From Flavobacteriales bacterium (GTDB lineage: Bacteria > Bacteroidota > Bacteroidia > NS11-12g > UBA955): DNA of 64,000 nt. The notes beneath the pieces are model-generated. The model did not search any database. It saw only the letters and a list, made by a program, of their open reading frames with translations, and was not told the DNA's origin. The stretch is from positions 11,077 through 75,076 of the forward strand of contig CANHRE010000004.1 in assembly GCA_947463095.1 (NCBI GenBank), read 5' to 3'. The translations under genes were made by a program, and so were the position numbers. Below, piece after piece: positions 3,113 through 56,966 of this stretch. Every line of letters begins with the position of its first letter. Position 1 is the stretch's first letter.

Positions 3113-4477
3113 TTACCACCGGCACTGCTGGATATCCAGGATGCAATACGGCGCAGGGCTTAGGTTGTAGCCTTTTGCATGAAGCGCTGAAACTGGCAGG
3201 GAACGCTCGAAAACTGCTCCCGAGAATAGCGCATCACGGTAGGAGGAATCCGGTTGCTCTTCCCGCATTAGTTTCACGCTGACCATGGTTTTTCCGGCTT
3301 GGAATATCCGGCTGCACATCAATGTTTCATAAGGCAGGGCCCAGGAGGCATGCAGGCGCCTATCCATCTGCCCGGGTGCTCCGGTGATGGCTATTTTCCC
3401 CGATGGACAAGCCTTGTTGGCGAACGCAACCAGACTCCGTAACTGCTTATGGCGGTTTAGGGACCACTGTTGTGCCAGGGTCAACTGGTATGCGCCAAAC
3501 AGCACTATGGCCGCCATCAGCATCCCATATTGCCTTTGATGACCGGCTGTGTTGGCCGCTTCCATCATAGGCAGGCTGAGAAACAGGAACAGGGGAATCA
3601 GGTTCTTTTCCAAAACTTGGTCGCTGTCGCCTTCCCAAAACAGGAGTGCAAGCAGGGTGAACAGGAACAATCCCGCGATACCGTGCCAAAGCATCTTCAT
3701 TGGCTGCTTCCGGTACAGCCAAATGGCACTGCCCGACAGCAGCAGCAGCGCTGCGCCGCTGCCATGAAGCGCGGTGCGCCACAGGTATGAGGGGATGTAG
3801 GCTTCCGGCAGGCGTTCGGGATGCAGCAGGTGCAAAAGAAACCCTTGTTCGTAGGTGTCCTGACTCCATAATTTAAGGATGGCCAGCAATATCAGGCCAC
3901 CGGCCAAGGGCCACCAGCTTTGGAAAGGCTCGCTCAGGGCCTGACGGGTAGCCATGAACAGCAGCGCAGGTAATATTCCGCTGTGGGAACCCGCCGATAG
4001 CACAAAAAGCAAGGCTGCCAGGTAAGGGCTTCCCTGTTTGCTGTAAACTGCATGCCATCCAAGCGCGAAAACGGCAGCCAGGTACATTTCACTAACCGGA
4101 ACAAACCATGCCGAGGCGGTCCATACGCTGCACAGCATAAAACAGGCCAGCGCAGTGCCATGAAGGTTCCTCTTAAAAGCATACAAGGCCAATATAAAAA
4201 CTGGCAGTTGCAGGGAAATACTGTAAACCACCAGTACAGCATGTAAATCCAGGCCGGCATGCACCGACAGCCAGGGTGAAAATTGGGTAAGTACAGCGCT
4301 ATACCTCAGGTGTCCGAAATCCATCTGACCATATTGAAACAGCCGCCAACTCATAAAGGCGCTGTCGGCGTAGAGCATGCGCAAAGGCCACCAGATGAGG
4401 GCCAGTATAAGCAAGGCGCTGTTAAGCCCCAGCAGCAGGGCGCCGGTTCCGGGCCACTTCTTGTAAATAGGATTCAA
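3113..4477 (-). CDS. Polytopic inner-membrane protein (about 11-12 TM helices plus a C-terminal soluble domain); possible glycosyl-/polymer-transferase partner of the adjacent GT4
   Basis: 454 aa, almost entirely hydrophobic helices. It overlaps the 3' end of the GT4 gene by 56 nt, and an alternative start at M34 (about 4378) would remove the overlap. No confident family call is possible from sequence alone. Confidence 0.5.
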   Translation of the reverse strand: MNPIYKKWPGTGALLLGLNSALLILALIWWPLRMLYADSAFMSWRLFQYGQMDFGHLRYSAVLTQFSPWLSVHAGLDLHAVLVVYSISLQLPVFILALYAFKRNLHGTALACFMLCSVWTASAWFVPVSEMYLAAVFALGWHAVYSKQGSPYLAALLFVLSAGSHSGILPALLFMATRQALSEPFQSWWPLAGGLILLAILKLWSQDTYEQGFLLHLLHPERLPEAYIPSYLWRTALHGSGAALLLLSGSAIWLYRKQPMKMLWHGIAGLFLFTLLALLFWEGDSDQVLEKNLIPLFLFLSLPMMEAANTAGHQRQYGMLMAAIVLFGAYQLTLAQQWSLNRHKQLRSLVAFANKACPSGKIAITGAPGQMDRRLHASWALPYETLMCSRIFQAGKTMVSVKLMREEQPDSSYRDALFSGAVFERSLPVSALHAKGYNLSPAPYCILDIQQCRW

Positions 4478-5700: not shown

Positions 5701-6903
5701 TTGCCGTGCATGCTACACGCCGCGCAGAGAATTTCAGAAATTAACGAAAGCGAGACACTGGCCATGACCAAGCTGGCCAGAGCGTTGAAAGAGGCCGGAA
5801 AGGATGTTATCAGCCTGAGCATCGGCGAGCCTGATTTTGATACGCCCGAACACATCGGTGCTGCCGCCATTCAGGCCATCCATGAAGGGTTTACCCATTA
5901 TACCCCGGTGCTTGGTTTCCAGGATTTCCGGGAAGCGATTTGCCGTAAACTGCTGCGCGAAAACGGATTGACTTATCAGGCATCGGAAATTATCGTGAGC
6001 ACCGGCGCAAAACACACGCTGGTGAACATCATGCTGGCGGTACTCAATCCGGGTGATGAAGTTGTCATCCCCGCCCCGTACTGGGTGAGTTATCCGGCCA
6101 TGGTGCGCTATGCCGGCGGCGTTCCTGTATTTCTGAATACCACCGTGGAACAGGACTATAAGCCAACAGCAGCGCAACTCAGGGCTGCCATAAGCCCAAA
6201 AACCAAAATGTTCCTGTTCAGCAGCCCCTGCAACCCCAGCGGTACGGTATTCCAGCCTGAAGACCTGGAAACATATGCGGCGGTGTTGCGCGAATTCCCC
6301 GATATCCTGGTGGTAAGCGACGAGATTTACGAACACATTATCTTTGAAGGAAAGCACCTGAGCATTGCCGGTCTGCCCGGATTTAAAGACCGCACGGCCG
6401 TAGTAAATGGTCTTTCCAAAGGCTATGCCATGACCGGATGGCGCATGGGGTATATGGCCGGGCCGCAATGGCTGGTAAAAGCCTGCGAAAAATTACAGGG
6501 GGTGTTTACCAGCGGGGCAAACAGCATAGCACAGAAAGCAGGGATTGCCGCGCTGGATGGAACCATGGAGCCCACACGTCATATGCGCGAGGTATTCAGA
6601 GCACGCCGCAACCTGGTGCTCTCCGAACTTTCGAAAATACAGGGTCTGAAAATCAACGTTCCGGAAGGTGCATTTTATGTGTTTCCCGATATTTCCCATT
6701 TCCTTGGAAAATCCTTCCAGGGGAATACCATGAGCGATTCCAATGAGCTGGCCATCTACTTGCTGAATGAAGCCCTGGTTGCTACTGTTGCTGGTGATGC
6801 TTTTGGCATGCCGTCATGCATCCGCCTTTCCTATGCCACCGATGAAGCCAGCTTGCTCAAGGCCTGCTCCAGGATGAAGGAAGCACTGGAGAAACTCAGC
6901 TGA
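5701..6903 (+). CDS. Class I/II pyridoxal-phosphate aminotransferase (aspartate/aromatic aminotransferase-like)
   Basis: 400 aa. The N-terminus RISEINESETLAMTKLARALKEAGKDVISLSIGEPDFDTP matches the AspAT-family N-terminus, and the PLP-lysine region is NGLSKGYAMTGWRMGY. The true start may be M4 (5710). The gene is divergent from the GT4 gene. Confidence 0.8.
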   Translation: MPCMLHAAQRISEINESETLAMTKLARALKEAGKDVISLSIGEPDFDTPEHIGAAAIQAIHEGFTHYTPVLGFQDFREAICRKLLRENGLTYQASEIIVSTGAKHTLVNIMLAVLNPGDEVVIPAPYWVSYPAMVRYAGGVPVFLNTTVEQDYKPTAAQLRAAISPKTKMFLFSSPCNPSGTVFQPEDLETYAAVLREFPDILVVSDEIYEHIIFEGKHLSIAGLPGFKDRTAVVNGLSKGYAMTGWRMGYMAGPQWLVKACEKLQGVFTSGANSIAQKAGIAALDGTMEPTRHMREVFRARRNLVLSELSKIQGLKINVPEGAFYVFPDISHFLGKSFQGNTMSDSNELAIYLLNEALVATVAGDAFGMPSCIRLSYATDEASLLKACSRMKEALEKLS

Positions 6904-6917
6904 GCTTTGAATTAACT

Positions 6918-7916
6918 TTGCGCATCCCGATGCATACAAATTTTGAATCTTTATTTCGTTCATTCCGCAGCCTGAGGGTGCTGATAGTGGGGGATGTGAT
7001 GGTGGATGCCTATTACTTTGGCAGCGTTGACCGCATTTCTCCTGAAGCACCGGTGCCCGTAGTGTTGGTGGACAAACAGGAAACCCGCCTGGGCGGGGCC
7101 GGTAATGTGGCGTTGAATGTACATGCCCTGGGTGCGCAACCCGTGCTGTGCACCGTTATTGGAACAGATAAAGAAGGCGAAGGTCTCAGGGCTCTGCTTC
7201 GGGCTCAGGGTCTGAGCGAGCGCGGAATCCTGGAAAGCGAAAAGCGCAAAACCACGACCAAAACCCGCGTGATTGGCAACAAACACCAAATTGTGCGCAT
7301 TGACCATGAACTCACCGAGAACCTGGATAAAATGGACAGCTTCCTGCTGCTCGAATCTGTGAAGCGCGAACTCGAACAGGCCGATGTGCTGATCATGGAA
7401 GACTATAACAAGGGTGTACTTCACGAGGGTAACATCAAGGCCATCATCGCCCTGGCGAAGGAAGCCGGTGTTCCCGTAGTGGTAGATCCCAAAAAGAAGA
7501 ACTTCCTGGAATATGCCGGCGTAACCCTGTTCAAGCCCAACCTGAAGGAAATCAAGGAAGGGCTGAACATCACCACCGACCTGAGGCAACCAGAACAGCT
7601 TAGCGCCGCAGTTTCTCAGTTGCAGGAGAAATTGGGCAATACCTATACCATGGTTACCTTGTCGGAACAGGGTGTGTTTATTTCCGGAAAGGGGCAGTCC
7701 CATCATATTCCGGCACACCTCAGGAACATCGCCGATGTTTCCGGCGCCGGCGATACGGTAGTCAGCGTGGCAGCCCTATGCCTGGCGCTGGAAACCGATA
7801 TCCAGTTGCTGGCAGCGCTGAGCAACCTTGCCGGAGGTATTGTTTGTGAACAAACAGGGGTAGTGCCTATTGAAGCAGAACGCCTTAAGGCGGAAGCTGA
7901 ACGACTCCTGGTCTGA
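6918..7916 (+). CDS. PfkB-family sugar kinase resembling the D-glycero-beta-D-manno-heptose-7-phosphate kinase domain (HldE/RfaE domain I), standalone
   Basis: 332 aa. LRVLIVGDVMVDAYYFGSVDRISPEAPVPVV and GGAGNVALN match the HldE kinase N-terminus, and DVSGAGDTVVSVAALCLAL is a PfkB signature. There is no fused adenylyltransferase domain. The likely start is M5 (6930). Confidence 0.65.
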   Translation: MRIPMHTNFESLFRSFRSLRVLIVGDVMVDAYYFGSVDRISPEAPVPVVLVDKQETRLGGAGNVALNVHALGAQPVLCTVIGTDKEGEGLRALLRAQGLSERGILESEKRKTTTKTRVIGNKHQIVRIDHELTENLDKMDSFLLLESVKRELEQADVLIMEDYNKGVLHEGNIKAIIALAKEAGVPVVVDPKKKNFLEYAGVTLFKPNLKEIKEGLNITTDLRQPEQLSAAVSQLQEKLGNTYTMVTLSEQGVFISGKGQSHHIPAHLRNIADVSGAGDTVVSVAALCLALETDIQLLAALSNLAGGIVCEQTGVVPIEAERLKAEAERLLV

Positions 7917-7957
7917 ACTTTGTACAAGTTCTAAACCATTCCACCGTTATCTCATTC

Positions 7958-8842
7958 ATGACAAAGAAGCATTCAAAGACCTTCTTCCTTTGCCTGAGTT
8001 TCCTGTTGTTTCAGGCTGCCCAGGCACAAAAACCCTTCCTGTTTAAAGTGCAGGGTAAGGGACTAAAAGAGGCTTCCTATTTATTTGGTACCTATCATGT
8101 GATGGGAAGCCGCTACCTGGATGGTTTTCCAGTGGTGGATCAGGCCTTTCGTTCCTGCAAGGGACTGGTGAATGAGGTGCGCCTGTCGTCGGTAAATCCG
8201 TATCAGATGGCCGCCTTGTTGATGATGAAGGACAACAGCATCTCAGCCATGCTCGATACCACGGCCTATGCTTTGGTGAGCGATGCCCTGAAACAGTATT
8301 ACGGATTTCGACTGCAGCAGTTTGACCAAATGAAGCCCATGCTGGTGCAAACCATGCTCATTTCTGCTTTTGCCCGCCAATGGGACACCATGTTGAACCG
8401 CTACGAAGGGGTGGCGCTGGATGCCTGGTTTGAACAAATGGCCGACAGCCTGAAGAAAGAGGTTACACCTTTAGAAACCTTCGACGAGCAGTATCAGTCT
8501 TTGTTCGTAGAAAAATCGGAAGAGGAACAGGCTAAGGAACTTAGTGATATGGTGCTGAAGACAGATTCGGTGCGCCGCGATTTTCAGGCGATGACACGCG
8601 CCTTTTATTCAGGAAACCTGGATTCGATGTGGCTGGTGCTGTCTGCCACTGGGAATCCTAACGAAGCCGCTGATATGGAACGACTGCTGAAAAAACGCAA
8701 CCTTAAGTGGTTGGAGCAGCTTCCCGGAACGATGGAACGGAAATCGCAGTTTGTGGCTGTTGGCGCAGCTCATCTGGCCGGCCCGTTCGGCTTGGTGGCC
8801 GGACTGAAGGCCAAAGGCTATCAGGTAATTCAGGTATTATGA
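7958..8842 (+). CDS. TraB/GumN family protein (periplasmic, signal peptide)
   Basis: 294 aa with a signal peptide (MTKKHSKTFFLCLSFLLFQAAQAQ). The LFGTYHV motif and overall layout are typical of the TraB/GumN family. Confidence 0.6.
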   Translation: MTKKHSKTFFLCLSFLLFQAAQAQKPFLFKVQGKGLKEASYLFGTYHVMGSRYLDGFPVVDQAFRSCKGLVNEVRLSSVNPYQMAALLMMKDNSISAMLDTTAYALVSDALKQYYGFRLQQFDQMKPMLVQTMLISAFARQWDTMLNRYEGVALDAWFEQMADSLKKEVTPLETFDEQYQSLFVEKSEEEQAKELSDMVLKTDSVRRDFQAMTRAFYSGNLDSMWLVLSATGNPNEAADMERLLKKRNLKWLEQLPGTMERKSQFVAVGAAHLAGPFGLVAGLKAKGYQVIQVL

Positions 8843-15866: not shown

Positions 15867-16330
15867 CACTGCTGTCCAAAACGTTTTTTATTGAACAGTT
15901 AGTGTGCTGATTATCAAGGATTAAGCTGTCTTTTTTTGCCATTTTGATTTTTACCCCCCCCACCGAATCAACCATATTCTATTCTTTCCTCTTACTTTTT
16001 CCTTGATGAAAAAGTAAGCAAAAAATCAAGGCTGCTTGGATAGTGGATAGTGGATAGTGGTAAGGGATAAGTGGTAAGTGGTAAGAGCCGGTCCCCGCCT
16101 GCTCCCACCGAGTTGCAAAGCAACTGCTTGCCCCCACTGGATTGCGCAGCAAGACACCGTGGGGGTGGGGGAGCAGCTTGCCCCCCTTGTCCTTCGCTGC
16201 GCTCACTTACGCCTGCCCCGTAAGCGCAGCGACAGGGGGGGCAGGCGCAAGCGCAGCGATGCGGGGTTATATTAATAGCAATAACAGGAAACAAATATTC
16301 AGAGCCCCGGCCCCGCCCGAGTTAAGCGAG
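15867..16330. repeat. Modular structured intergenic repeat, copy A: hairpin module, heptamer array and G/C-rich stem-loop modules
   Basis: 15867-16035 matches the reverse complement of 54727-54894. 15989-16175 matches 47878-48127 in direct orientation. There is a perfect 10-bp-stem hairpin (CTTACTTTTT-ccttgatg-AAAAAGTAAG) at 15991-16018 and seven tandem TGGWWAG heptamers at 16037-16085. C-run/G-run stems (CCCCCAC…GTGGGGG) follow, and more palindromic GC-rich stems extend to about 16330. The repeat lies in a convergent 3'-3' intergenic region. Confidence 0.85.
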
Positions 16331-47691: not shown

Positions 47692-47877
47692 CAGTTTAGA
47701 TGGGTATTGAACTTAAGGTGAGACAGCGGCATGAACGTTGCGTCGCAAACTTACGGCAAAGGCTAAACTGAAGCAAATGAGGGATTATGGGGAGTGCACC
47801 GGTCCCTGAGCTCATTTTGAATATATGCTCATGACAGGGGTCTGTGCCAACCTGATGAATCCTTAAGCAAGAATTTT

Positions 47878-48127
47878 CTCTTACTTTTTCCTTGATGAAA
47901 AAGGATGCAAAAAATCAAGGCTGCTTGGATAGTGGTAAGGGATAAGTGGTAAGTGGTAAGTGCGGAGGTTTGTAATCCTGCTGTCATCCTGAGCATGCCT
48001 ACCCCTACCGGGCTGCGCAGCAGATTGGTAGGGGAGCTAGTTTACCCTGCCTGCCCCCACCGAGTTGCAAAGCAACTGCTTGCCCCCACTGGATTGCGCA
48101 GCAAGACACCATGGGGGTGGGGGAGCA
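47878..48127. repeat. Modular structured intergenic repeat, copy B (direct relative to copy A; carries an extra ~90-bp module)
   Basis: Matches copy A from the hairpin module through the heptamer array (five TGGWWAG units here) and the CCCCCAC…GTGGGGGTGGGGG module. It holds an additional internal duplication of the C-run-TGCGCAGCA-G-run submodule. The hairpin stem is partly degraded (AAAAAGGATG versus AAAAAGTAAG). Confidence 0.85.
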
Positions 48128-48456: not shown

Positions 48457-48678
48457 ATGCTCCACACAATGGATATAGATAGAACTAATCTGACTATCAT
48501 GGGAGTTGAGTTTACTGATTTGAACACTTTAGAAAGCACCGCAAACGCTTTGGGCAGCAATATGTTCGAAGGCATTAAACCAACACCCAATGGTGTTGAA
48601 ATCATCAGAGACTATGTGACGGGCAAAATAAAGGGGTCTAAGACACATGCTAATCATAGTTCAGAAAATGTGTGTTAA
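48457..48678 (+). CDS. Small hypothetical ORF (73 aa) at the island edge; possibly a remnant or accessory gene
   Basis: MLHTMDIDRTNLTIMGVEFTDLNTLESTANALGSNMFEGIKPTPNGVEIIRDYVTGKIKG… The region is AT-rich like the island, and no family assignment is possible. Confidence 0.25.
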   Translation: MLHTMDIDRTNLTIMGVEFTDLNTLESTANALGSNMFEGIKPTPNGVEIIRDYVTGKIKGSKTHANHSSENVC

Positions 48679-48726: not shown

Positions 48727-50577
48727 ATGAGTAAAAATTTGAACCATAAAATAGATGCTGACGACAGAAGCATCAGCGAAATTCTGAAAGACCAGAAATT
48801 TACTATTGATTATTTTCAACGTGAATACCGCTGGCAGGAAAAGCATATCAAACTTTTAATTGAAGACCTGACCACTACGTTTCTTAAATCATATAGGGAA
48901 GGAGATAAGAGATCGGAAGTAGCCAATTATCAAAGCTATTATTTAGGCCCTGTGGTGTTTAGTGTGAACACAGAAAGCGGTAAGAAATCAATTATCGACG
49001 GACAGCAGCGCATTACTTCCATCACACTCCTGCTCATTTACCTGAATCATCTTCAAAAAGATCTTCCGCAGAAAGTAAACATCAGCGAACTCATTTTTTC
49101 TGAAAAATATGGCGAAAAATCCTTCAACATGAGTGATGAAGCCAGAGAAGAGTGCTTGAAAGCACTTTTTGAAGCAGGGGCATACGAACCAACGGAAAAA
49201 GATGATGAAACAGTGCGTAACATGGTTGAACGTTATGAGGATATTGATGCTGTTTTCCCTGAAGAAATTAACGAACATGCACTTCCATTTTTCATTGATT
49301 GGTTTGTTGAAAATGTAGTTATTGTTGAAATCATCGCTTATTCGGATGAGAATGCCTATACCATTTTTGAAACAATGAACGACAGGGGATTAAACCTGAC
49401 GCCAACAGAAATGCTGAAAGGGTATATTCTTTCCAAAATCACAGACAAAAAGCAGAGAACAGAAATCAATGACCTTTGGAAAGAAGAAATTCAAAATCTT
49501 CATGAATATGGTGAAACTACAGACCAAAGCTTTTTCCAAGCATGGTTCAGAGGTAAATATGCGGTGAGTATCAGACCTGGTAAAGCAGGTTCGGAAAATC
49601 AGGACTTTGAATTGATTGGTTCCCGTTTTCATAATTGGTTTAAAGACAATCATAAGTCTCTTTTTAAACTGACCACATCAGACGAGTTCTATACTTTTTT
49701 CAAAAATCAGTTCCCATTTTTTGTAAAGTGGTATATCGAAAGCTGGAAAAGTCAAACCACATATAACGCTGCAAATCCGCATTTGAATTACATTCGTCAT
49801 TGGGGTGTTGCCGAATCGCTTCAAGAACCTCTATTGCTCTCATCAATAAACTTTGGTGATGATGAAACCATCATCAGGAAAAAGTTAGACTTTGTTGCAC
49901 GATATATTGAAACCTTTACGGTTCGACGCAGCGTGAACTACCGTAAATTTGGTCAGACGGCAATTAAATACACCATGTTTAATGTCATCAAACTTATTAG
50001 AGACAATGACCTGAAAACATTAGGCTCAAACTTGGTAAATGAAGTGTCACAAATTGCAGAAACATGGGATGGGGTTTGGAGTTTTGGTCTTCACGGCATG
50101 AACAGAAAGTTTGTAAAACATCTTCTTTCAAGAATTTCAAGTTACGTGGACAATTTAGTCGGTAAGGACACAACCTATGTATCCTATCACCATCCATACG
50201 GCAAGCAGTTTGAGATTGAGCACATTTGGGCAAACAAGTTTGAAGAACATAAAGATGAGTTTGACCAGAAAAATGATTTTCAGGAATGGAGAAATTCAGT
50301 TGGTGCACTCGTGTTATTACCACAAGGCACCAATCAATCATTCAATGGCGATAAGTATGAAGACAAACTGGAAAATTATCTAAAGGAAAATACTTACGCA
50401 CAGACCTTGCATCCAAAGTATTACACGAAGAATCCTAATTTTTTGAAATCGGAAACAGTTCAACAACTCGGATTTAAAGAGCATTCGCAATTCAAGAAGA
50501 ATGATATAGGCGAAAGGCAAATATTAGTTCAACGAATCTGTGAGAAAATATGGTCTGAAGAATACTTCAATGTATAA
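48727..50577 (+). CDS. GmrSD-type DUF262/DUF1524 nuclease (type IV restriction / BrxU-like anti-phage protein)
   Basis: 616 aa. The N-terminal DUF262 (ParB-like NTPase) has DGQQRITSITLLLIYL. The C-terminal DUF1524 His-Me finger has …FEIEHIWANKF…NSVGALVLLPQGTNQSFNGDKYEDKL. GC content is about 36-38% against about 56% genome-wide. Confidence 0.8.
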   Translation: MSKNLNHKIDADDRSISEILKDQKFTIDYFQREYRWQEKHIKLLIEDLTTTFLKSYREGDKRSEVANYQSYYLGPVVFSVNTESGKKSIIDGQQRITSITLLLIYLNHLQKDLPQKVNISELIFSEKYGEKSFNMSDEAREECLKALFEAGAYEPTEKDDETVRNMVERYEDIDAVFPEEINEHALPFFIDWFVENVVIVEIIAYSDENAYTIFETMNDRGLNLTPTEMLKGYILSKITDKKQRTEINDLWKEEIQNLHEYGETTDQSFFQAWFRGKYAVSIRPGKAGSENQDFELIGSRFHNWFKDNHKSLFKLTTSDEFYTFFKNQFPFFVKWYIESWKSQTTYNAANPHLNYIRHWGVAESLQEPLLLSSINFGDDETIIRKKLDFVARYIETFTVRRSVNYRKFGQTAIKYTMFNVIKLIRDNDLKTLGSNLVNEVSQIAETWDGVWSFGLHGMNRKFVKHLLSRISSYVDNLVGKDTTYVSYHHPYGKQFEIEHIWANKFEEHKDEFDQKNDFQEWRNSVGALVLLPQGTNQSFNGDKYEDKLENYLKENTYAQTLHPKYYTKNPNFLKSETVQQLGFKEHSQFKKNDIGERQILVQRICEKIWSEEYFNV

Positions 50578-50694
50578 CAAAGAATTTTTGTAAAGACAGC
50601 CAACGCACAGGTGTAAGCATATTTGCAAGTGTAAGTCCCACCGAAAATCGGACTGGTCATAAGTTGGCAAAATAGCTAACTTAGAACCACGAAC

Positions 50695-50961
50695 ATGAAG
50701 AAGACCAAATTCACAGAAAGCCAGATCGTGAAAGCGATTAAGGAGGCTGAAAACGGCCGTTCAGTGTCGGACATCAGCCGGGAACTGGGCATCAACCCGC
50801 AGACTTTGTACAATTGGAAAAATAAGTACTCCGGTATGGACGGTGAACACCTGCGGCGACTTAAGGAACTGGAAGAGGAGAATCGTAAGCTGAAACACAT
50901 GTATGCCGAATTGGCCCTTGACAACAAGATGCTCAAGGATGTGCTGTCAAAAAAGTGGTAA
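50695..50961 (+). CDS. IS3-family transposase OrfA (HTH)
   Basis: 88 aa: MKKTKFTESQIVKAIKEAENGRSVSDISRELGINPQTLYNWKNKY…, then a leucine-zipper-like C-terminus. This is the typical IS3 OrfA. Confidence 0.85.
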   Translation: MKKTKFTESQIVKAIKEAENGRSVSDISRELGINPQTLYNWKNKYSGMDGEHLRRLKELEEENRKLKHMYAELALDNKMLKDVLSKKW

Positions 50962-51779
50962 GGCCTGCTGCCCGCAGAGAAATAGTAGCTTACCTGCAAG
51001 TATCCCATCAGGTAAGTGTCAGCAGAGCCTGTAAAGCAACCGGGATAAGGAAATCGGTCTATTATTACCGTTCCAGGAAGGACGACAGTGCTGTCATTGA
51101 CGCATTGAGCAACCTTGCCGAACTGAAACCATCCAGAGGCTTCCCTTATGACTTCAATCGCCTGCGCAATGAGGGCCATACCTGGAACCATAAGCGTGTG
51201 AAACGGGTCTATAACCTGATGAATCTGAACCTGAGAAGAAAGCATAGGCGCCGCTTACCCCAACGCGTAGGGGGCGCGTTGGAGCAAGCGCCGAGACCAA
51301 ACCAAACATGGAGTCTGGATTTCATGCATGATACATTAATGAACGGTCGCAAAGTGCGCATCCTGAATATCATAGACGACTACAACCGACAAGCTCTGGC
51401 TATGGACGTTGATTACTCCCATTCGGGAATGAGCGTTTGCAGGGCTCTTGAAAGACTCTTCGCCGAACAAGGCCTTCCTGCTGAGTTACGGTCTGACAAT
51501 GGCCCGGAATTCTTTTCTGGAACCTATACCGACTTCTGTGAGAAACATCAAATCAAGATCCGGTACATCAAGCCAGGAAAGCCTATGCAAAACGGCTTTG
51601 TAGAACGGTTTAACCGCAGTTACAGGGAAGATATCCTGGACGCATACCTGTTTACGAATATTGAAGAATTACGTGATCTCACCTGGCAGTTTCAACAAGA
51701 CTACAATCAAAACCACCCACATCAAGCGCTGAATAACTTAAGCCCCATTGCCTTTCTCAAACTAAACAACCATCTTTGA
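50955..51779 (+). CDS. IS3-family transposase OrfB (DDE integrase-like catalytic domain), expressed by -1 frameshift from OrfA
   Basis: rve-type domain: …WSLDFMHDTL…LRSDNGPEF…YIKPGKPMQNGFVERFNRSYREDIL (DD(35)E). It overlaps OrfA at the AAAAAAG site (50949-50955). Confidence 0.85.
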   Translation: MVRPAARREIVAYLQVSHQVSVSRACKATGIRKSVYYYRSRKDDSAVIDALSNLAELKPSRGFPYDFNRLRNEGHTWNHKRVKRVYNLMNLNLRRKHRRRLPQRVGGALEQAPRPNQTWSLDFMHDTLMNGRKVRILNIIDDYNRQALAMDVDYSHSGMSVCRALERLFAEQGLPAELRSDNGPEFFSGTYTDFCEKHQIKIRYIKPGKPMQNGFVERFNRSYREDILDAYLFTNIEELRDLTWQFQQDYNQNHPHQALNNLSPIAFLKLNNHL

Positions 51780-51816
51780 CTTCCAACTTATTACCGGTTC
51801 GAAAAACGGGGTACCT

Positions 51817-52245
51817 TCATTAAACTTTTAGTTGGCAAACCAATAGACGAAAGCATTTCAGTTGACGGTGCTTGGAATACATCAAATGGTGTTGTAGAGT
51901 ATCAGGGTGTTCACACAAAAACAAAGGAACTAATTTTTAAAGTCGGGCCATTAGAGGACGGGACAAATAACATAGTAGAGTTTTTAGGAATTGTTCATGC
52001 ACTTGCACATTGCAAAAAACACAATATCACTCTTCCAATTTATTCGGACAGTAGAAATGCAATCGGTTGGGTTCGTGACAAAGAAGCAAGAACAAACCAT
52101 GACCGTAGCGAAAGAAATACAAAACTTTTCGACATGTTGGACAGAGCAGTAAAATGGCTTAAAGAAAACGAATATGAGAACGAAATTCTCAAATGGGAAA
52201 CAAAAGCATGGGGAGAAAATCCTGCTGACTTTGGTCGAAAATAAT
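51817..52245 (+). pseudogene. RNase H-like (RNase HI fold) ORF with no usable start codon, abutting the IS3 right end
   Basis: The 142-codon frame FIKLLVGKPIDESISVDGAWNTSNGVVEYQGV…TNNIVEFLGIVHALAHCKKH…IYSDSRNAIGW…WETKAWGENPADF aligns with the RNase HI catalytic D-E-D-D positions. There is no ATG/GTG/TTG between the IS end and the first catalytic Asp. It is AT-rich, and its stop lies 40 nt upstream of the helicase start. Confidence 0.6.
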
Positions 52246-52285
52246 TTTGATATAACTATCTTGCACAAATAAAAATTAAACTCAA

Positions 52286-54469
52286 TTGACAACACCTAAA
52301 ACTGATTTAAGCGCTCTTAACGACAAACAAAGCGAAGCCGTTGTTAGTGACGAAAAACGCATTTTGGTTTTAGCTGGTGCAGGTTCTGGCAAAACAAAAA
52401 CCCTATTACAAAAAATCATTTACTTGATAGAAGAAAAAGGCGTAAGTCCTTCAAGTATTCTTGCTATTACATTTACCAAGAACGCAACTAACGAAATGAT
52501 TGACCGCTTAATTGTTTCGGCAGATACAACAGGGCAATATGAAACTTTGATGTCTGATAAGCATCTAAGCAAATTAGAGAAAGACAAAGAAAGATACAGC
52601 CAACAAAAAAAATATAAATGGATTGACGGTTTAACCGTCAGGACATTTCACAGCTTTTGTTACAGCATCTTACGGAATTATGGTGTAAACGAGTTTGATA
52701 ACAAGTTTAGAATTATAGGAGACGAAAAAAAGGACGAGGAAGACGAACTTGCAAAGCATGTTGCCCCCGAAACAGTTTTTGAAGTAGTCCACAAACTTTT
52801 AATTGAGCAATGCGAAGACACTTATTTTATGCTACAATTAAAACGCTATATTTTGGATTACGTTATAGACAAAATTCACCTCAAAAAAACAGATGGAAAA
52901 TATTTGCCGAAAGACGGCAAATATTTCACAACTCTTGATGGAACAAAAGTCCGTTCCAAATCGGAGCAGTTTATTGCTGATTGGTTTTACCGCCACAGCA
53001 TAAAGTATGAATATGAACCTTTACTAAATGTTAAGGACTTCCCATTTCATCCCGACTTTTTCATTCCAGAAGCGAACCTTTATATTGAACACTTAAGCGA
53101 TAAAAGCTATTCTACAAAGGACAAAGAAGAACAATTTCAAAAGGGAAATTTACTTTTAGTAAAGACATTTGAAAGCATGACAAAAGACTCTGCTTTGTTC
53201 AACCACACTCTGGACAGCGTTGTAAAGAACCGTTTGCCTGCAAATTATCACAAGACAGTTTCATTGACTTACAAAGAAGAATTTAATGGATATCATGAAA
53301 GTATAAAGGATTTCGTTACTCAAATCATACGAATTACAGACATGATAAAAGTTGAGAACACAGACCTGAAAAAAGTCCTAAATGATGCAAGACAAGACCA
53401 ACACGAAAGAGTGAGACATTTTTATGAATTAGCAATTCCAATAGTTGAAAAATATATTCATTACTGCATAGACAAATCTTATGTTGATTTTAATGATTTG
53501 ATTTCACGGAGCACTTCCCTATTTCAGAACCATGACGACATAGCCAACAAATACAAAAGCAAATATCAATACATTTTAGTAGATGAATTTCAAGACGTAA
53601 ATAACTTGCAAGTTGAGTTAATAAAACTTTTACTAACCGACCAAACTCAAATGTTTTGTGTTGGTGACGATTGGCAAAGTATTTACGGTTTCAGAGGTTC
53701 TAACGTGAGTTATATCGTTGACTTTGAAAATCATTTTCCAAATGCAAAAGTTGTCAAACTCAATTTGAATTATCGTAGCACTCAAAACATTGTTGGAGCA
53801 AGTAACGAAGTAATCAAACACAACAAGTTTAAAGTTGAAAAAGAAATTCACTCTTCAAAAAAATCTGAACATAAAATTGTTGTCTATTCAGGCAGCAGCG
53901 AAGATGAAAACATACAATTCTGTTTTGACAGAGTGAAAGAACTTTTAGATGAAGGACTGACAAACGATGATATTTTATTTCTCTACCGTAGAAGCAGAAT
54001 GTTTACTCCTTACTTCTTTCGTTTCAAAAACGAGGGAATAAAGGTTCATGGAAAAACAATTCATGCAGCTAAAGGACTTGAAGCAAAAGTTGTTTTCATA
54101 CTTGGCTTGTCAGAGGGAAACGGGGGTTTCCCAGACATTTGGTTGGAGGACAGAATTTTTCAAGTAATTAAAAAAGCAAATCACGATTTGCTAATAGAAG
54201 AAGAAAGGCGACTATTTTATGTTGCAATCACCAGAGCCAAAGACAAACTATTTTTAGTAACAGAGAAAGGAAACGAATCAAGTTTTTTAAAAGAGATACC
54301 AGCCATTTTCACAGTTCGGACAACTATACCAATTAAGTCAGTAGTAGAAAAAGTAATTACGTGCAAAAAGTGTTTTAGCCAACTTGAAAAACTTTGGATT
54401 GCTTGCCCATACTGCATGGAGAAAGTAACAGACGACACCAACGGACAAGAAAATGACATCAATATTTAA
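52286..54469 (+). CDS. UvrD/PcrA-like SF1 helicase with a Vsr/DUF559-like (restriction-endonuclease-fold) domain inserted between motifs Ia and II and a C-terminal Cys4 zinc ribbon; probable anti-phage helicase-nuclease
   Basis: 727 aa. Helicase motifs: I AGAGSGKT, Ia ILAITFTKNA, II YILVDEFQDVN, III VGDDWQSIYGFRGS, IV NYRST, VI YVAITRAKDKLFLV. The insert is …RSKSEQFIADWFYRHSIKYEYEPLLNVKDFPFHPDFFIPEANLYIEHLSDK…. The C-terminus reads CKKCFSQLEKLWIACPYC. GC content is about 35%. Confidence 0.7.
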   Translation: MTTPKTDLSALNDKQSEAVVSDEKRILVLAGAGSGKTKTLLQKIIYLIEEKGVSPSSILAITFTKNATNEMIDRLIVSADTTGQYETLMSDKHLSKLEKDKERYSQQKKYKWIDGLTVRTFHSFCYSILRNYGVNEFDNKFRIIGDEKKDEEDELAKHVAPETVFEVVHKLLIEQCEDTYFMLQLKRYILDYVIDKIHLKKTDGKYLPKDGKYFTTLDGTKVRSKSEQFIADWFYRHSIKYEYEPLLNVKDFPFHPDFFIPEANLYIEHLSDKSYSTKDKEEQFQKGNLLLVKTFESMTKDSALFNHTLDSVVKNRLPANYHKTVSLTYKEEFNGYHESIKDFVTQIIRITDMIKVENTDLKKVLNDARQDQHERVRHFYELAIPIVEKYIHYCIDKSYVDFNDLISRSTSLFQNHDDIANKYKSKYQYILVDEFQDVNNLQVELIKLLLTDQTQMFCVGDDWQSIYGFRGSNVSYIVDFENHFPNAKVVKLNLNYRSTQNIVGASNEVIKHNKFKVEKEIHSSKKSEHKIVVYSGSSEDENIQFCFDRVKELLDEGLTNDDILFLYRRSRMFTPYFFRFKNEGIKVHGKTIHAAKGLEAKVVFILGLSEGNGGFPDIWLEDRIFQVIKKANHDLLIEEERRLFYVAITRAKDKLFLVTEKGNESSFLKEIPAIFTVRTTIPIKSVVEKVITCKKCFSQLEKLWIACPYCMEKVTDDTNGQENDINI

Positions 54470-54726
54470 AGCAGCAGACCTTCGGACGGACAATAGCCCA
54501 GCACATAACATCTAGCGGTGTAGAAGCAACCCCGCCCCATAAAAAACCCTTCGACAGGATGATAGCAGAGGTCTTATCCATTTTCCATTCCCCCCAAAGG
54601 ATCGGCCTCAAATGATGGGAGGCGTTAAACGCCGCAAAAAGCCGCTAAATGCCAAGGAAGCTCCGAGCACGCGAGGAGATCGCCGCTGGCATTCGGCTGA
54701 TGGCAAGTGTGCGCCTTTCATCATTT

Positions 54727-54894
54727 GCAGCCTTGATTATTCTCTTACTTTTTCATCAAGGAAAAAGTAAGAGAAAAGAATAGAATATGTTTGATTCGGT
54801 GTGGGGGTAAAAATCGAAATCGTCAAAAACAGACTGCTAACCCCCAAATAATCTGCACACTAACTGTTCAATAAAAACGTTTTGGACAGCAGTG
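54727..54894. repeat. Modular structured intergenic repeat, copy C (inverted relative to copies A and B; hairpin module plus left-arm module only)
   Basis: The reverse complement of 54727-54894 aligns with 15867-16035. This covers CACTGCTGTCCAAAACGTTTTT(T)ATTGAACAGTTAGTGTGC…TTTTTACCCCC…ACCGAATCAA…TATTCTATTCTT…CTCTTACTTTTTCCTTGATGAAAAAGTAAG…AATCAAGGCTGC. The hairpin is perfect. Confidence 0.85.
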
Positions 54895-55127
54895 GTTCAT
54901 AATAATAAAGATATTCACTACAAACGAAGAAAATGAACACTATAACGTACTATAACAGCACTTGCCCAAAAGTGGCGGTTCAGTGCTCCGCAGACACATT
55001 TGTGTTTAATCAATTTTGGTTCTCCGCATCAATCCCTACATATCGGAATGGTGAAAATCGCCGCCTTCGCCAAGCCCGAAACCGTTAGTGGTCAGTTTAG
55101 GACAACACACTAAAAAGACAAGAAATT

Positions 55128-55700: not shown

Positions 55701-55817
55701 AAACCGAACCGCTAATATTTAGCGGAGTAGAAGCAACCACGCTCAAAAAAAATGAGCTAGAGCGTGTTACACGAATTGGGTCAATTTGAGCAAAAACCAC
55801 TAAACTTGACATAAACG

Positions 55818-56856: not shown

Positions 56857-56889
56857 AAAAAAAAACCATCACATGGTGATGGTTTTTTT
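56857..56889. terminator. Rho-independent terminator shared by tRNA-Val (minus) and the DUF1566 gene (plus)
   Basis: AAAAAAAAA-CCATCACATGGTGATGG-TTTTTTT lies immediately 3' of the tRNA. Confidence 0.7.
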
Positions 56890-56891
56890 GG

Positions 56892-56966
56892 TGGGAGCTG
56901 AGGGGTTCGAACCCCCGACCCTCTGCTTGTAAGGCAGATGCTCTGAACCAGCTGAGCTAAGCTCCC
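56892..56966 (-). tRNA. tRNA-Val (anticodon TAC); the CCA is genome-encoded (56889-56891)
   Basis: Reverse complement: GGGAGCU-UA-GCUC-AGCUGGUUCA-GAGC-A-UCUGC-CUUACAA-GCAGA-GGGUC-GGGGG-UUCGAAC-CCCCU-CAGCUCCC-A-CCA. It folds as a cloverleaf with a 7-bp acceptor stem, a GGUUCGAAC T-loop and anticodon UAC. Confidence 0.9.

Follow-up and report, generated by a model that had tools for sequence, protein, structure and literature searches.

An IS3-damaged copy of a conserved, horizontally spreading RNase H and helicase-nuclease operon of Bacteroidota

The analysed stretch of 64 kb (the window) contained a GmrSD gene, an IS3 element, an RNase H remnant and a helicase gene, in that order and all on the + strand, which bore out the single orientation described in the initial annotation. 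Of the block of 36–38% GC that it had set against about 56% elsewhere, the low GC content held for the GmrSD gene (37.0%) and the RNase H–helicase pair (34.6%), but not for the insertion sequence (47.5%), and the remainder of the window averaged 51.7% (range 46–56%). The first gene (48727..50577, + strand) encodes a GmrSD-family type IV restriction enzyme of 616 aa, identified by Pfam (GmrSD_N, 2.7e-34; GmrSD_C, 3.7e-07) and with HEC-06/Orf5/SspE-like matches in PADLOC.

The IS3-family element (1190 bp; 50630..51819, + strand) was delimited by imperfect inverted repeats with TG...CA termini (TGTAAGTCCC... and ...GGGGTACCTTCA) and occurred once in the window. It contained orfA (50695–50961, + strand; HTH_Tnp_1), orfB (50955–51779, + strand; rve; NCBIfam transpos_IS3, 210 bits) and an A6G frameshift motif. 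As previously noted, no target-site duplication surrounded the element; the left flank ...GCAAG and the right flank TTAAA... differ. Homology to intact RNase H genes began at the base right after the IS end (starts 51820–51831), and no other place in the window yielded the 5' sequence that this gene has lost. Because of these observations, the insertion followed by an adjacent deletion that had been proposed is the simplest reading, in which the RNase H gene lost its promoter and codons 1–69 and the helicase-nuclease was spared.

Translation, Pfam, NCBIfam, nhmmer and PDB alignment identified the region 51820..52244 (+ strand) as the 3' remnant, codons 70–210, of a Bacillus halodurans-type RNase H1 gene. 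The frame is open from 51780 to the stop codon at 52242–52244 and has no in-frame ATG, GTG or TTG before 52134, in agreement with the reported lack of a start codon; however, the loss is larger than that, amounting to 69 codons (208 nt) that include the whole hybrid-binding domain and linker. With this domain, linker, start codon and promoter deleted, the remnant is a pseudogene. All four catalytic residues (DEDD) were kept, as claimed earlier, in SVDGA, VEFLG, YSDS and PADFGRK when the remnant was aligned to B. halodurans RNase H (PDB 1ZBI/6DMN). It scored 29.2 bits with Pfam RNase_H, covered positions 79–211 of 211 in the NCBIfam profile NF046109 and 215–671 of 676 in nhmmer, and was 89–91% identical to 210-aa proteins with PF01693 and PF00075; it makes up the final 141 residues of such an RNase H and does not derive from the C-terminal part of some larger, unrelated gene.

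The intact module RNase H shares with B. halodurans RNase H (PDB 1ZBI, 6DMN; NF046109) an N-terminal hybrid-binding domain, a type-1 catalytic domain with ~50% identity and the conserved DEDD residues. It matched NF046109 over its full length (profile positions 1–211) at 256 bits, below the equivalog cut-off of 320. Unlike the enzyme of Bacillus (Halalkalibacterium) halodurans, the module clade is almost confined to helicase-adjacent loci, and the window copy lacks residues 1–69 and a standard start codon. The RNase H tree split cleanly into this helicase-associated clade and a solo clade of the same architecture, in which none of ~35 genes adjoined a helicase.

The helicase gene (52286..54469, + strand), whose TTG start is common to most homologues and follows the RNase H stop after a gap of 41 nt, encodes an intact SF1A (UvrD/helicase IV-like) protein of 727 aa according to Pfam, NCBIfam and PDB searches. 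Like E. coli helicase IV (HelD) and PcrA/UvrD/Rep, it has all SF1A motifs and matches Pfam UvrD-helicase (2.3e-66) and UvrD_C; the PDB search matched PcrA (1.6e-56), and helicase IV was closest for the 2A/2B and C-terminal region (NCBIfam PRK11054, 257 bits). Unlike these proteins, it fell below every equivalog cut-off of the NCBIfam PcrA/UvrD/Rep/helicase IV models, carries a C-terminal zinc ribbon, and has ~300 residues in place of PcrA residues 77–162 (86 aa); the HelD N-terminal domain is absent. The replacing segment includes a predicted nuclease-fold domain of ~145 aa inserted in domain 1B (aa 180–325; 52823..53260, + strand), recognised by fold match and invariant acidic residues. It has the PD-(D/E)xK fold of T7 endonuclease I, Vsr and DUF559-type proteins, and its invariant E (SKSE), D (PDF) and E (IEH) align with E20, D55 and E65 of T7 endonuclease I; the fold match was almost as good for Vsr, Bax1 and restriction enzymes. 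Pfam misses the domain except in 2 of the 90 relatives, where Phage_endo_I matched weakly. A Lys corresponding to K67 of T7 endonuclease I is not conserved, another near-invariant Lys lying ~12 residues downstream, and the nuclease activity is not certain because the canonical Lys of ExK is missing. The zinc ribbon (CxxC-x10-CxxC, aa 693–710; 54362..54415, + strand) was read from the sequence; Pfam zinc-ribbon matches were weak in the window helicase, and in the relative P0247 they came to ~25 bits, with Zn_Ribbon_1 at 24.5 and thus below its cut-off of 25.

The region 51700–52300 contained one match only to TAnnTTTG, the -7 promoter motif of Bacteroidota. This box (TAATTTTG; 52242..52249, + strand) shares bases with the stop codon of the RNase H gene, lies 37 nt ahead of the start of the helicase and recurs unchanged in L032 and L010, the closest relatives; it may serve the helicase as an internal promoter. 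Comparison with relatives further revealed a non-coding element, X (54951..55087, + strand), that in relatives precedes the RNase H gene by 60–80 nt, closely follows the helicase, or both; in the window it lies 3' of the helicase with a ~440-nt insert between. It had no Rfam match and no consensus fold. The module is flanked on both sides by direct repeats at L032 (53 nt long, 89% identical) and at L093 (~250–350 nt, 76–87% identical).

Helicases of the module in many Bacteroidota were 74–95% identical to that of the window, and one set of homologues 83–95%. The supposition that the RNase H and helicase genes were originally a two-gene module, with intact homologues free of the IS in related genomes, was confirmed by many Bacteroidota loci in which an intact 210-aa RNase H lies 17–49 nt upstream of the helicase (L001–L006, L008–L012, L015–L018, L020, L021, L025, L027, L050, L053, L067, L084–L098 and L150–L155), with flanks unrelated between loci. 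RNase H was the sole recurrent neighbour of the helicase among 65 loci, and the distances of the two proteins were correlated (Mantel r 0.62; reached in 0 of 2000 permutations). The adjacency survives rearrangement: in L102, L147 and L148, from a helicase clade only ~50% identical to that of the window, the pair is convergent with a gap of 5–10 nt. At L028, L034, L059 and L145 a tandem-RNase H protein replaces the hybrid-binding-domain form, which suggests that hybrid recognition and cleavage are the conserved requirement. The link is asymmetric: around half of the loci with a helicase contain no RNase H; 5'-truncated or IS-split remnants were present at at least six helicase loci, including the window, and 3' remnants upstream of several helicase-only genes indicate that the loss is secondary. 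Within the associated RNase H clade, the genes at L099 and L100 had no helicase in the 420–500 nt available downstream. The window thus holds an IS3-damaged copy of a conserved, horizontally spreading two-gene operon of Bacteroidota. Its first gene encodes a dedicated type-1 RNase H lineage in which an RNA:DNA hybrid-binding domain precedes a catalytic domain of B. halodurans type, and its second, from a conserved TTG ~40 nt further on, a helicase IV/UvrD-like SF1A helicase with the 1B nuclease domain and C-terminal zinc ribbon. The suggestion that the deletion had inactivated the module is doubtful, given that the helicase gene is undamaged and that about half of the related helicases have no RNase H.

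No synteny was detected among the 65 loci, the helicase tree does not track taxonomy, and the GC content of the pair (34.6%) departs from that of the host (~52%). DNA homology between loci ends at the gene ends. dS was saturated between most copies, but only ~0.5 from the window copy to Mariniflexile and UKL13-3, and dN/dS was 0.03–0.08. The loci were chromosomal, without mobile-element backbone genes or an associated recombinase or transposase, and phages, plasmids and IMG/VR contigs yielded no close relatives. Distant full-length helicase relatives (26–28% identical) occur on plasmids, without RNase H and beside AbiE toxin-antitoxin genes. Conflict-type neighbours comprised AbiE, HipBA, PemK, Type ISP, DUF262/GmrSD, DUF4238, SLFN-like, Mrr and Avs4, whereas ordinary metabolic genes surround many loci (L003, L150). 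None of the 65 genome loci had an orthologue of the window GmrSD adjoining the module; DUF262-type genes near the module in L032, L037 and L047 were merely 20–26% identical to it, and GmrSD_N/DUF262 genes defined by Pfam or motif were located at L149 and L100. The view of the four elements as one composite cassette was not supported: unrelated genes of this type recur in a minority of loci, and GmrSD is a co-resident neighbour within the same low-GC block, not a module partner.

As the initial annotation had supposed, the pairing was absent from PADLOC and from the literature searched as a described defence system; the RNase H had no counterpart among the PADLOC models, and the helicase matched generic GajB/RT-helicase models only. 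Gabija (GajA OLD-family nuclease and GajB UvrD-like helicase) likewise ties a UvrD-family helicase to a nuclease in variable islands, and its GajB models matched at 1e-63; unlike in Gabija, the GajA/OLD (ATPase-TOPRIM) partner is absent from all module loci, the nuclease has a different fold and sits inside the helicase, and the partner gene is RNase H. The nuclease is C-terminal in AddA/RecB and on the separate subunit Bax1 in archaeal XPB-Bax1, in contrast to domain 1B here. Staphylococcal Nhi is an SF1B/Upf1-like protein, and no Nhi model was among the top PADLOC matches. None of these helicase-nucleases has an RNase H partner. Among antiphage toxins, RnlA/LsoA (RNase LS), which carry a viroplasmin/RNase H-like module at the N-terminus, offer a precedent for antiviral recruitment of hybrid-binding/RNase H domains, but their effector is a HEPN RNase in a toxin-antitoxin pair without helicase, and the proteins are unrelated.

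The best explanation as a whole, to which we give about an even chance, is an IS-beheaded operon acting on hybrid-containing structures, most likely against invading replicons. [quoted passage not shown] Its RNase H would bind and nick the hybrid, and the helicase would run along the exposed DNA strand while its embedded structure-specific nuclease cuts DNA. The helicase-nuclease would be the autonomous core and RNase H a dispensable accessory, lost repeatedly; the window helicase probably still works alone, via the -7-like box at 52242 or IS read-through. The weakest step is the role, for which surveillance against phage or plasmid replicons appears likeliest because of the patchy, non-syntenic distribution and the frequent toxin-antitoxin and restriction neighbours. 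PMC3710099 provides a precedent for hybrid-binding-domain/RNase H modules in an antiphage context, and PMC8318588 and PMC8074105 one for PcrA/UvrD working with RNase H on R-loops. A defence role, as first proposed, is plausible from the AbiE, HipBA, Type ISP and DUF262/GmrSD neighbours at a subset of loci, whereas the very low dN/dS, at a housekeeping level unlike that of most immune genes, argues against a classic arms-race gene.

Such extremely strong purifying selection speaks for the main rival, genome maintenance, which we consider possible but less probable: an additional RNase H1, together with a motor of PcrA/UvrD/helicase IV type that bears a junction-cutting nuclease, would clear R-loops and resolve transcription–replication conflicts or damaged forks in the host chromosome, perhaps under induction by stress or damage. 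The ordinary metabolic contexts, the repair and replication helicases as nearest NCBIfam models, and the known cooperation of PcrA/UvrD with RNase H on R-loops (PMC8318588, PMC8074105) agree with such a role, and element X, which precedes the module in L032, L091 and L094 and, in the window, a DinB-superfamily gene, hints at shared regulation. The patchy, non-syntenic distribution, evident horizontal transfer, the foreign GC content in the window, frequent decay of both genes and recurrent toxin-antitoxin and restriction neighbours fit it poorly, and the solo RNase H clade presumably does the housekeeping job.

Patchy spread without synteny and many decayed copies also resemble the gain–fixation–decay cycle of a selfish homing- or cassette-like gene, spread by its nuclease with RNase H as cargo or helper and the repeats of L032 and L093 as recombination sites. 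We regard this as unlikely: those repeats are confined to few loci of one subclade, a common insertion site and an associated recombinase or transposase are lacking, homology stops at the gene ends, spread is slow since dS is saturated between most copies, and Vsr, Bax1 and restriction enzymes match the nuclease fold almost equally. Slightly more improbable is a counter-defence or plasmid-type function on mobile elements, stripping hybrids made by host immunity, for instance CRISPR R-loops, RNA-guided Argonautes or reverse-transcriptase systems; RNase H and helicase could in principle dismantle R-loops, and distant relatives are plasmid-borne, but these lack RNase H and sit beside AbiE genes, and close relatives are chromosomal and absent from the phage, plasmid and viral-contig collections. 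A chance or local adjacency, which the helicase loci without RNase H might suggest, is hardly credible and is contradicted by the pair's occurrence in dozens of unrelated contexts and two orientations, the dedicated RNase H clade, the correlated distances and the remnants that mark secondary loss. Overall, an undescribed yet widely conserved pair of Bacteroidota joins a dedicated RNA:DNA-hybrid ribonuclease to a following helicase with a built-in nuclease.

The initial annotation had predicted that, if the RNase H-like ORF and the helicase gene once formed a two-gene module, intact pairs should exist in related genomes. This central prediction was borne out, since intact RNase H–helicase pairs recur in other genomes with differing flanks. 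Sources of an intact pair include Mariniflexile maritimum M5A1M (L010, NZ_WRPN01000009.1) and Flavobacterium sp. RSB2_4_14 (L050). Exact-sequence look-ups from RNase H homologs revealed a UvrD-family gene of 721–726 aa located 36–49 nt downstream, in flanks that differ among the genomes. An RNase H-seeded metagenome scan returned 20 loci with an RNase H at least 60% identical to P0001, the intact partner protein used as reference, and the helicase lay downstream in 18 of them; in the two exceptions (loci L099 and L100), only 420–500 nt of downstream sequence was present and contained no helicase. RNase H genes at 51–58% identity (n~35) had an adjacent helicase in no case, and a neighbour-joining RNase H tree separated "helicase-associated" and "solo" clades without mixing. 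One possible exception to the pairing was noted: L100 carries an associated-clade RNase H (2061–2693) that immediately follows a DUF262-HNH (GmrSD-like) gene (815–1897), with no helicase in the following 499 nt.

In the window, the plus-strand RNase H frame that ends at 52244 was identified by translation (...KLLVGKPIDESISVDGAW...VEFLG...YSDS...PADFGRK*), Pfam and NCBIfam. As first described, it has no start codon: past the stop codon of the transposase, no ATG, GTG or TTG occurs in frame until 52134. The claim that all four RNase HI catalytic positions are kept also held, as SVDGA, VEFLG, YSDS and PADFGRK in the remnant align to 6DMN/1ZBI, and the catalytic carboxylates correspond to D71, E109, D132 and D192 of the B. 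halodurans enzyme. The remnant represents codon 70 onward, scores above the Pfam RNase_H gathering score and covers positions 79–211 of the 211-position NCBIfam model of B. halodurans-type RNase H; PF01693, the hybrid-binding domain, has no match in the window copy. The NF046109 equivalog cut-off of 320 bits is reached neither by the remnant (177 bits) nor by intact P0001 (256 bits). Database searches yielded 3294 RNase H homologs with a best identity of 91%, and among the best matches listed nearly all are ~210 aa long and contain PF01693 and PF00075. Residues 78–210 of the intact RNase H align with the catalytic domain of the solved B. halodurans structure (E 5e-37), and residues 5–45 with the hybrid-binding domains of human and yeast RNase H1. 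The window RNase H is a pseudogene.

The truncation coincides with one end of an IS3 element, which consists of orfA with an HTH (50695–50961, plus strand) and orfB with a DDE rve domain (50955–51779, plus strand), an A6G (−1) frameshift motif and terminal TG...CA repeats. Two imperfect inverted repeats, TGTAAGTCCCACCGAAAATCGGACTGGTCATAAGTTGG and TGAAGGTACCCCGTTTTTCGAACCGGTAATAAGTTGG (the second given as its reverse complement), place its ends at 50630 and 51819, and a search of the window for a second copy found none. DNA homology to intact RNase H genes starts at 51820–51831, from the base after the IS end; 208 nt (69 codons) are missing together with the native promoter region found upstream of intact RNase H genes, and the missing 5′ part was detected nowhere else in the window. 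A 3–5 bp target-site duplication is absent, and the unlike flanks (GCAAG vs TTAAA) are consistent with a secondary adjacent deletion or recombination. Given the absent duplication and homology that starts at the IS end, the simplest history is the one originally proposed, in which the IS inserted and an adjacent deletion came later. In four homologous loci (L032, L094, L091 and L010), this promoter region includes TAACTTTG or TAAATTTG ~35 nt before the RNase H ATG. The one TAnnTTTG match left in the window copy, a possible promoter for the helicase, is at 52242–52249 and also present in L032 and L010; it overlaps the RNase H stop codon and precedes by 37 nt the TTG of the helicase, a start codon common to most homologs. 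Transcription of the window helicase by read-through from the IS is also possible.

A helicase-seeded scan restricted to one genome per species gave 77 loci, 48 of which could be classified, their helicase being full-length and the sequence upstream of it long enough. An intact RNase H was located upstream of the helicase in 19 of the 48 (16 of the 210–216 aa type and three of a 318-aa type), a disrupted remnant in four (L026, L036, L045 and L032), and no RNase H in the remaining 25; L007 contains an additional likely remnant. A DNA profile of the RNase H revealed 3′-terminal remnants immediately before the helicase gene, both in the window and in L007, L026, L036, L045 and L076. The module closest to that of the window (91% DNA identity), in Bacteroidetes bacterium UKL13-3 (L032, CP012155.1), carries a different IS3-family element (5790–7959; orfA 5937–6275, orfB 6320–7177) that splits the RNase H at ~codon 35, and this insertion is independent of the one in the window. 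In the helicase tree, RNase H-bearing loci are dispersed from the deepest branches to the tips and interspersed with RNase H-less loci. The remnants, the separate split in UKL13-3 and the interspersed tree thus indicate that the RNase H has been lost, and the helicase kept, many times; the reverse case, an associated-clade RNase H without the helicase, occurs rarely if at all. As the self-sufficient core of the module, the helicase need not be inactivated in the window, which makes the earlier suggestion that the IS and deletion inactivated the module doubtful. The window helicase-nuclease is probably still functional, and the window copy is a partly decayed example of the module.

Clustering of all flanking ORFs identified the RNase H as the sole recurrent neighbour of the helicase. 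Pairwise distances of the two proteins were correlated (Mantel r 0.62, with 0 of 2000 permutations as high), and clearly discordant RNase H and helicase distances at L009 and L011 point to partner swapping inside the associated clade. Recruitment of these two divergent RNases H from the "solo" clade was rejected, since both group inside the helicase-associated clade. In a second helicase clade, ~50% identical to the window helicase, a 210-aa RNase H adjoins in convergent orientation with a 5–10 nt gap (L102, L147 and L148). At several loci a ~318-aa partner takes the place of the RNase H with the hybrid-binding domain (L028 6176–7132, L034 6960–7928, L059 6528–7481 and L145 3441–4397), and the helicase of Flavihumibacter fluvii is preceded, at a distance of 1.6 kb, by a 318-aa RNase H. 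This form contains two RNase_H Pfam stretches, and the first domain of the L028 protein has Tyr for the first catalytic Asp ("IYVYGSC"); the first domain looks like a hybrid-binding stand-in for the hybrid-binding domain.

Pfam, NCBIfam and PADLOC identified the 727-aa product of 52286–54469 (plus strand) as a UvrD-family helicase, with UvrD-helicase (224.7 bits) and UvrD_C (94.6 bits) above the Pfam gathering scores. It aligns to PcrA and contains all SF1A motifs, including Walker A GAGSGKT and motif II DEFQD, as well as a C-terminal CxxC-x10-CxxC zinc ribbon. The best named NCBIfam matches are all far under their equivalog cut-offs: PcrA (300 vs 911 bits), UvrD (272 vs 965), Rep (246 vs 951) and helicase IV (257 vs 543). 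Within the conserved 3′ part of the ORF (54170–54267), a sub-threshold match to Rfam RF03531, 'C. difficile sRNA included into helicase gene' (37.5 vs 65.2 bits, E 0.003), most likely reflects coding-sequence likeness between helicase genes.

In place of PcrA residues 77–162 (domain 1B), the helicase contains ~300 residues. For the core of this insert (aa 180–325), 1.8 billion representative proteins yielded 797 relatives, many of them stand-alone and 110–300 aa long. Searched as a single sequence or with a shallow profile, the insert had no match in Pfam or PDB, and Pfam on the insert relatives returned a weak Phage_endo_I match in 2 of 90. T7 endonuclease I was reached only with a diverse profile (E 6.5e-4). 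AF2 prediction of aa 100–380 with ten homologs (82–88% identical) gave a pLDDT of 38, which a diverse alignment remedied, and the insert was assigned to the restriction-endonuclease-like (PD-(D/E)xK / Vsr-like) fold. An alignment of 40 sequences revealed invariant V43, S45, E48, Y64, E65, D78 and E89 and a near-invariant K101 (≥90%). E48, D78 and E89, in SKSE, PDF and IEH, align with E20, D55 and E65 of T7 endonuclease I; the position of the T7 ExK lysine (K67) is occupied by L or W. The name "helicase-nuclease" is thus justified on predicted structure, with catalysis putative.

Close helicase homologs, 74–95% identical, were found in Chitinophagales, Sphingobacteriales, Flavobacteriales, Cytophagales, Saprospiraceae and Bacteroidales, and a few in MAGs of phyla other than Bacteroidota. 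The latter include short contigs assigned to Ureibacillus (L017), Chlamydiae (L048), Bacteriovoracaceae (L078) and Ignavibacteriaceae (L051) with helicases 81–88% identical to that of the window, accompanied by the RNase H partner in the Ureibacillus MAG; they represent either binning contamination or cross-phylum transfer. The helicase tree is discordant with taxonomy, the flanks are non-syntenic, and the GC content of the pair fits its surroundings in low-GC hosts but is foreign in the ~52% GC window. dN/dS was 0.03–0.08, and dS was 0.47–0.53 to the nearest relatives (Mariniflexile and UKL13-3) but reached saturation against most others. On these dS values, the high identity was judged not to stem from a recent sweep; low dN/dS with high dS argues instead for extreme constraint and occasional transfer. 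No close relatives were found in GenBank phages, PLSDB plasmids or IMG/VR. Distant full-length relatives of the helicase (26–28% identical) occur on plasmids, and AbiE genes adjoin two of three examined.

Upstream of the IS, ORF listing and Pfam identified a 616-aa GmrSD-family enzyme (48727–50577, plus strand) with GmrSD_N (DUF262; 119.5 bits) and GmrSD_C (DUF1524; 30.6 bits) in a single protein, both above cut-offs. The GC content is 37.0% in this gene, 47.5% in the IS and 34.6% in the RNase H–helicase stretch, against a mean of 51.7% in the remaining window. The low-GC region is bounded on the right by a tRNA-Val(TAC) gene (56889–56966, minus strand); no tRNA-derived direct repeat was found at its opposite edge, and no integrase in the window. 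The module has DUF262/GmrSD-type genes nearby in the window, L032, L037, L047, L149 and L100, and those compared with the window GmrSD were only 20–26% identical to it, so their presence is island co-residence rather than a conserved cassette. To call the four elements a composite cassette, as the initial annotation did, overreaches the evidence. Directly upstream of GmrSD, a 73-aa ORF (48457–48678) has a weak, sub-cut-off match to VbhA antitoxin (E 2.9e-4) and no adjoining Fic toxin gene; it may be the leftover of a Fic/VbhA toxin–antitoxin pair.

A conserved non-coding element of ~130–150 nt (element X) accompanies the module at 54951–55087 of the window, immediately before a DUF1572/DinB gene, and at L032 (5579–5722 and 10205–10330), L091 (3809–3923), L094 (1567–1689), L093 (3468–3581) and L103 (~2640–2800). 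Its position varies by locus, either 60–80 nt upstream of the RNase H or just downstream of the helicase, and L032 has direct copies on both sides of the module. A palindrome in the L093 and L094 copies (e.g. CAGTCCGATAGCTATCGGACTG) is degenerate in the window copy; as a structured RNA, the element had no Rfam match, and RNAalifold gave only a 4-bp helix (−0.6 kcal/mol). The possibility that the 52 nt separating GmrSD from the IS are the start of an element X, so that little would have been deleted, was rejected, as alignment scores did not exceed those of shuffles. Other repeats were observed around the module. On the metagenome contig L093, direct repeats of ~250–350 nt (140–485 and 3546–3908; 76–87% identical, spacing 3447 nt) flank the module, with no ORFs downstream, and may be a cassette boundary or recombination site. 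In the window, but not in L032, an insert of ~440 nt with host-like GC (54511–54950) separates the 3′ tail of the helicase from element X, with ATAAC on both sides. Within it lies a palindromic repeat (54727–54894) with an inverted copy at 15867–16035 (88%) and a partial copy at 47874–47924, where the low-GC block begins on the left; this repeat resembles host repeats of the MITE or REP kind. A 40-nt direct repeat (TAACATCTAGCGGTGTAGAAGCAACC..., 83% identical) follows the helicase (54506–54545) and the DUF1572/DinB gene (55713–55752).

Analysis of the genomic context revealed ordinary surroundings, such as metabolic genes at L003, L150 and many of the 264 nearest ORFs, and conflict-type neighbours in a clear subset of loci only, these being raw occurrences alongside many metabolic neighbours. 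HipA/HTH_3 genes are near the module in ~5–6 loci, and Mrr_cat, Fic and Avs4 genes are also among the neighbours. Individual loci adjoin PDC-M36A and TerD (L001), AbiEi/AbiEii (L147), Type ISP restriction, GmrSD_N and DUF4238 (L149), a SLFN-like helicase and a MazG-like gene (L145), PemK (L154), or HipBA and SLFN_AlbA_2 (L156). With conflict-type genes in a subset of loci and metabolic genes at many others, the label "defence" in the initial annotation goes further than the evidence. In PADLOC-DB v2.0.0 the RNase H matched no family, the helicase matched only the generic GajB and RT-helicase models, and no system-specific model covered both genes. In Gabija, GajA (an OLD-family ATPase-TOPRIM nuclease) adjoins the GajB helicase, whereas the module helicase lacks such a neighbour, GajA being absent from the window and from the recurrent neighbours. 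Literature searches for an RNase H + UvrD system found no description. The pair is thus undescribed in PADLOC or the literature searched, its nuclease insert is without a Pfam model, and among helicase-nuclease systems the module counts as an undescribed variant.

There is good support for the anatomy of the module, for conservation of the pair and for its truncation through the IS. In the favoured mechanism, the helicase-nuclease would be structure-directed and work on branched molecules containing RNA:DNA hybrids, with the dedicated RNase H as its accessory; of the roles considered, conflict with invading replicons is taken to be the most likely. The main rival is a portable genome-maintenance module for R-loop and junction processing, which is a good fit with the housekeeping-level constraint. 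Hybrid-binding/RNase H modules are present in RnlA-type antiphage toxins (PMC3710099), and PcrA/UvrD cooperates with RNase H at R-loops (PMC8318588 and PMC8074105); these two precedents support linking hybrid processing to either role. We regard it as conceivable, though rather doubtful, that the pair is an undescribed, phylum-wide Bacteroidota immune or conflict system that senses the RNA:DNA hybrids or R-loops of invading replicons, not a sequence or protein, with the dedicated RNase H lineage and its hybrid-binding domain as sensor or processor and the helicase, through its embedded junction-type nuclease, as effector.

Experimental discovery of defence systems has covered the Bacteroidota poorly, and this family offers material for tests, with thousands of homologs, natural RNase H-plus and -minus variants and natural IS knock-outs (the window and UKL13-3). 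If the pair acts in immunity, the target sensed would be a replication or transcription intermediate instead of a sequence. Such structure-sensing would account for housekeeping-level constraint (dN/dS ~0.04) despite accessory, horizontally transferred behaviour, and repeated RNase H loss would mark a switch between two operating modes. If the pair acts in genome maintenance, it would be a portable R-loop- and junction-processing kit exchanged among bacteria.
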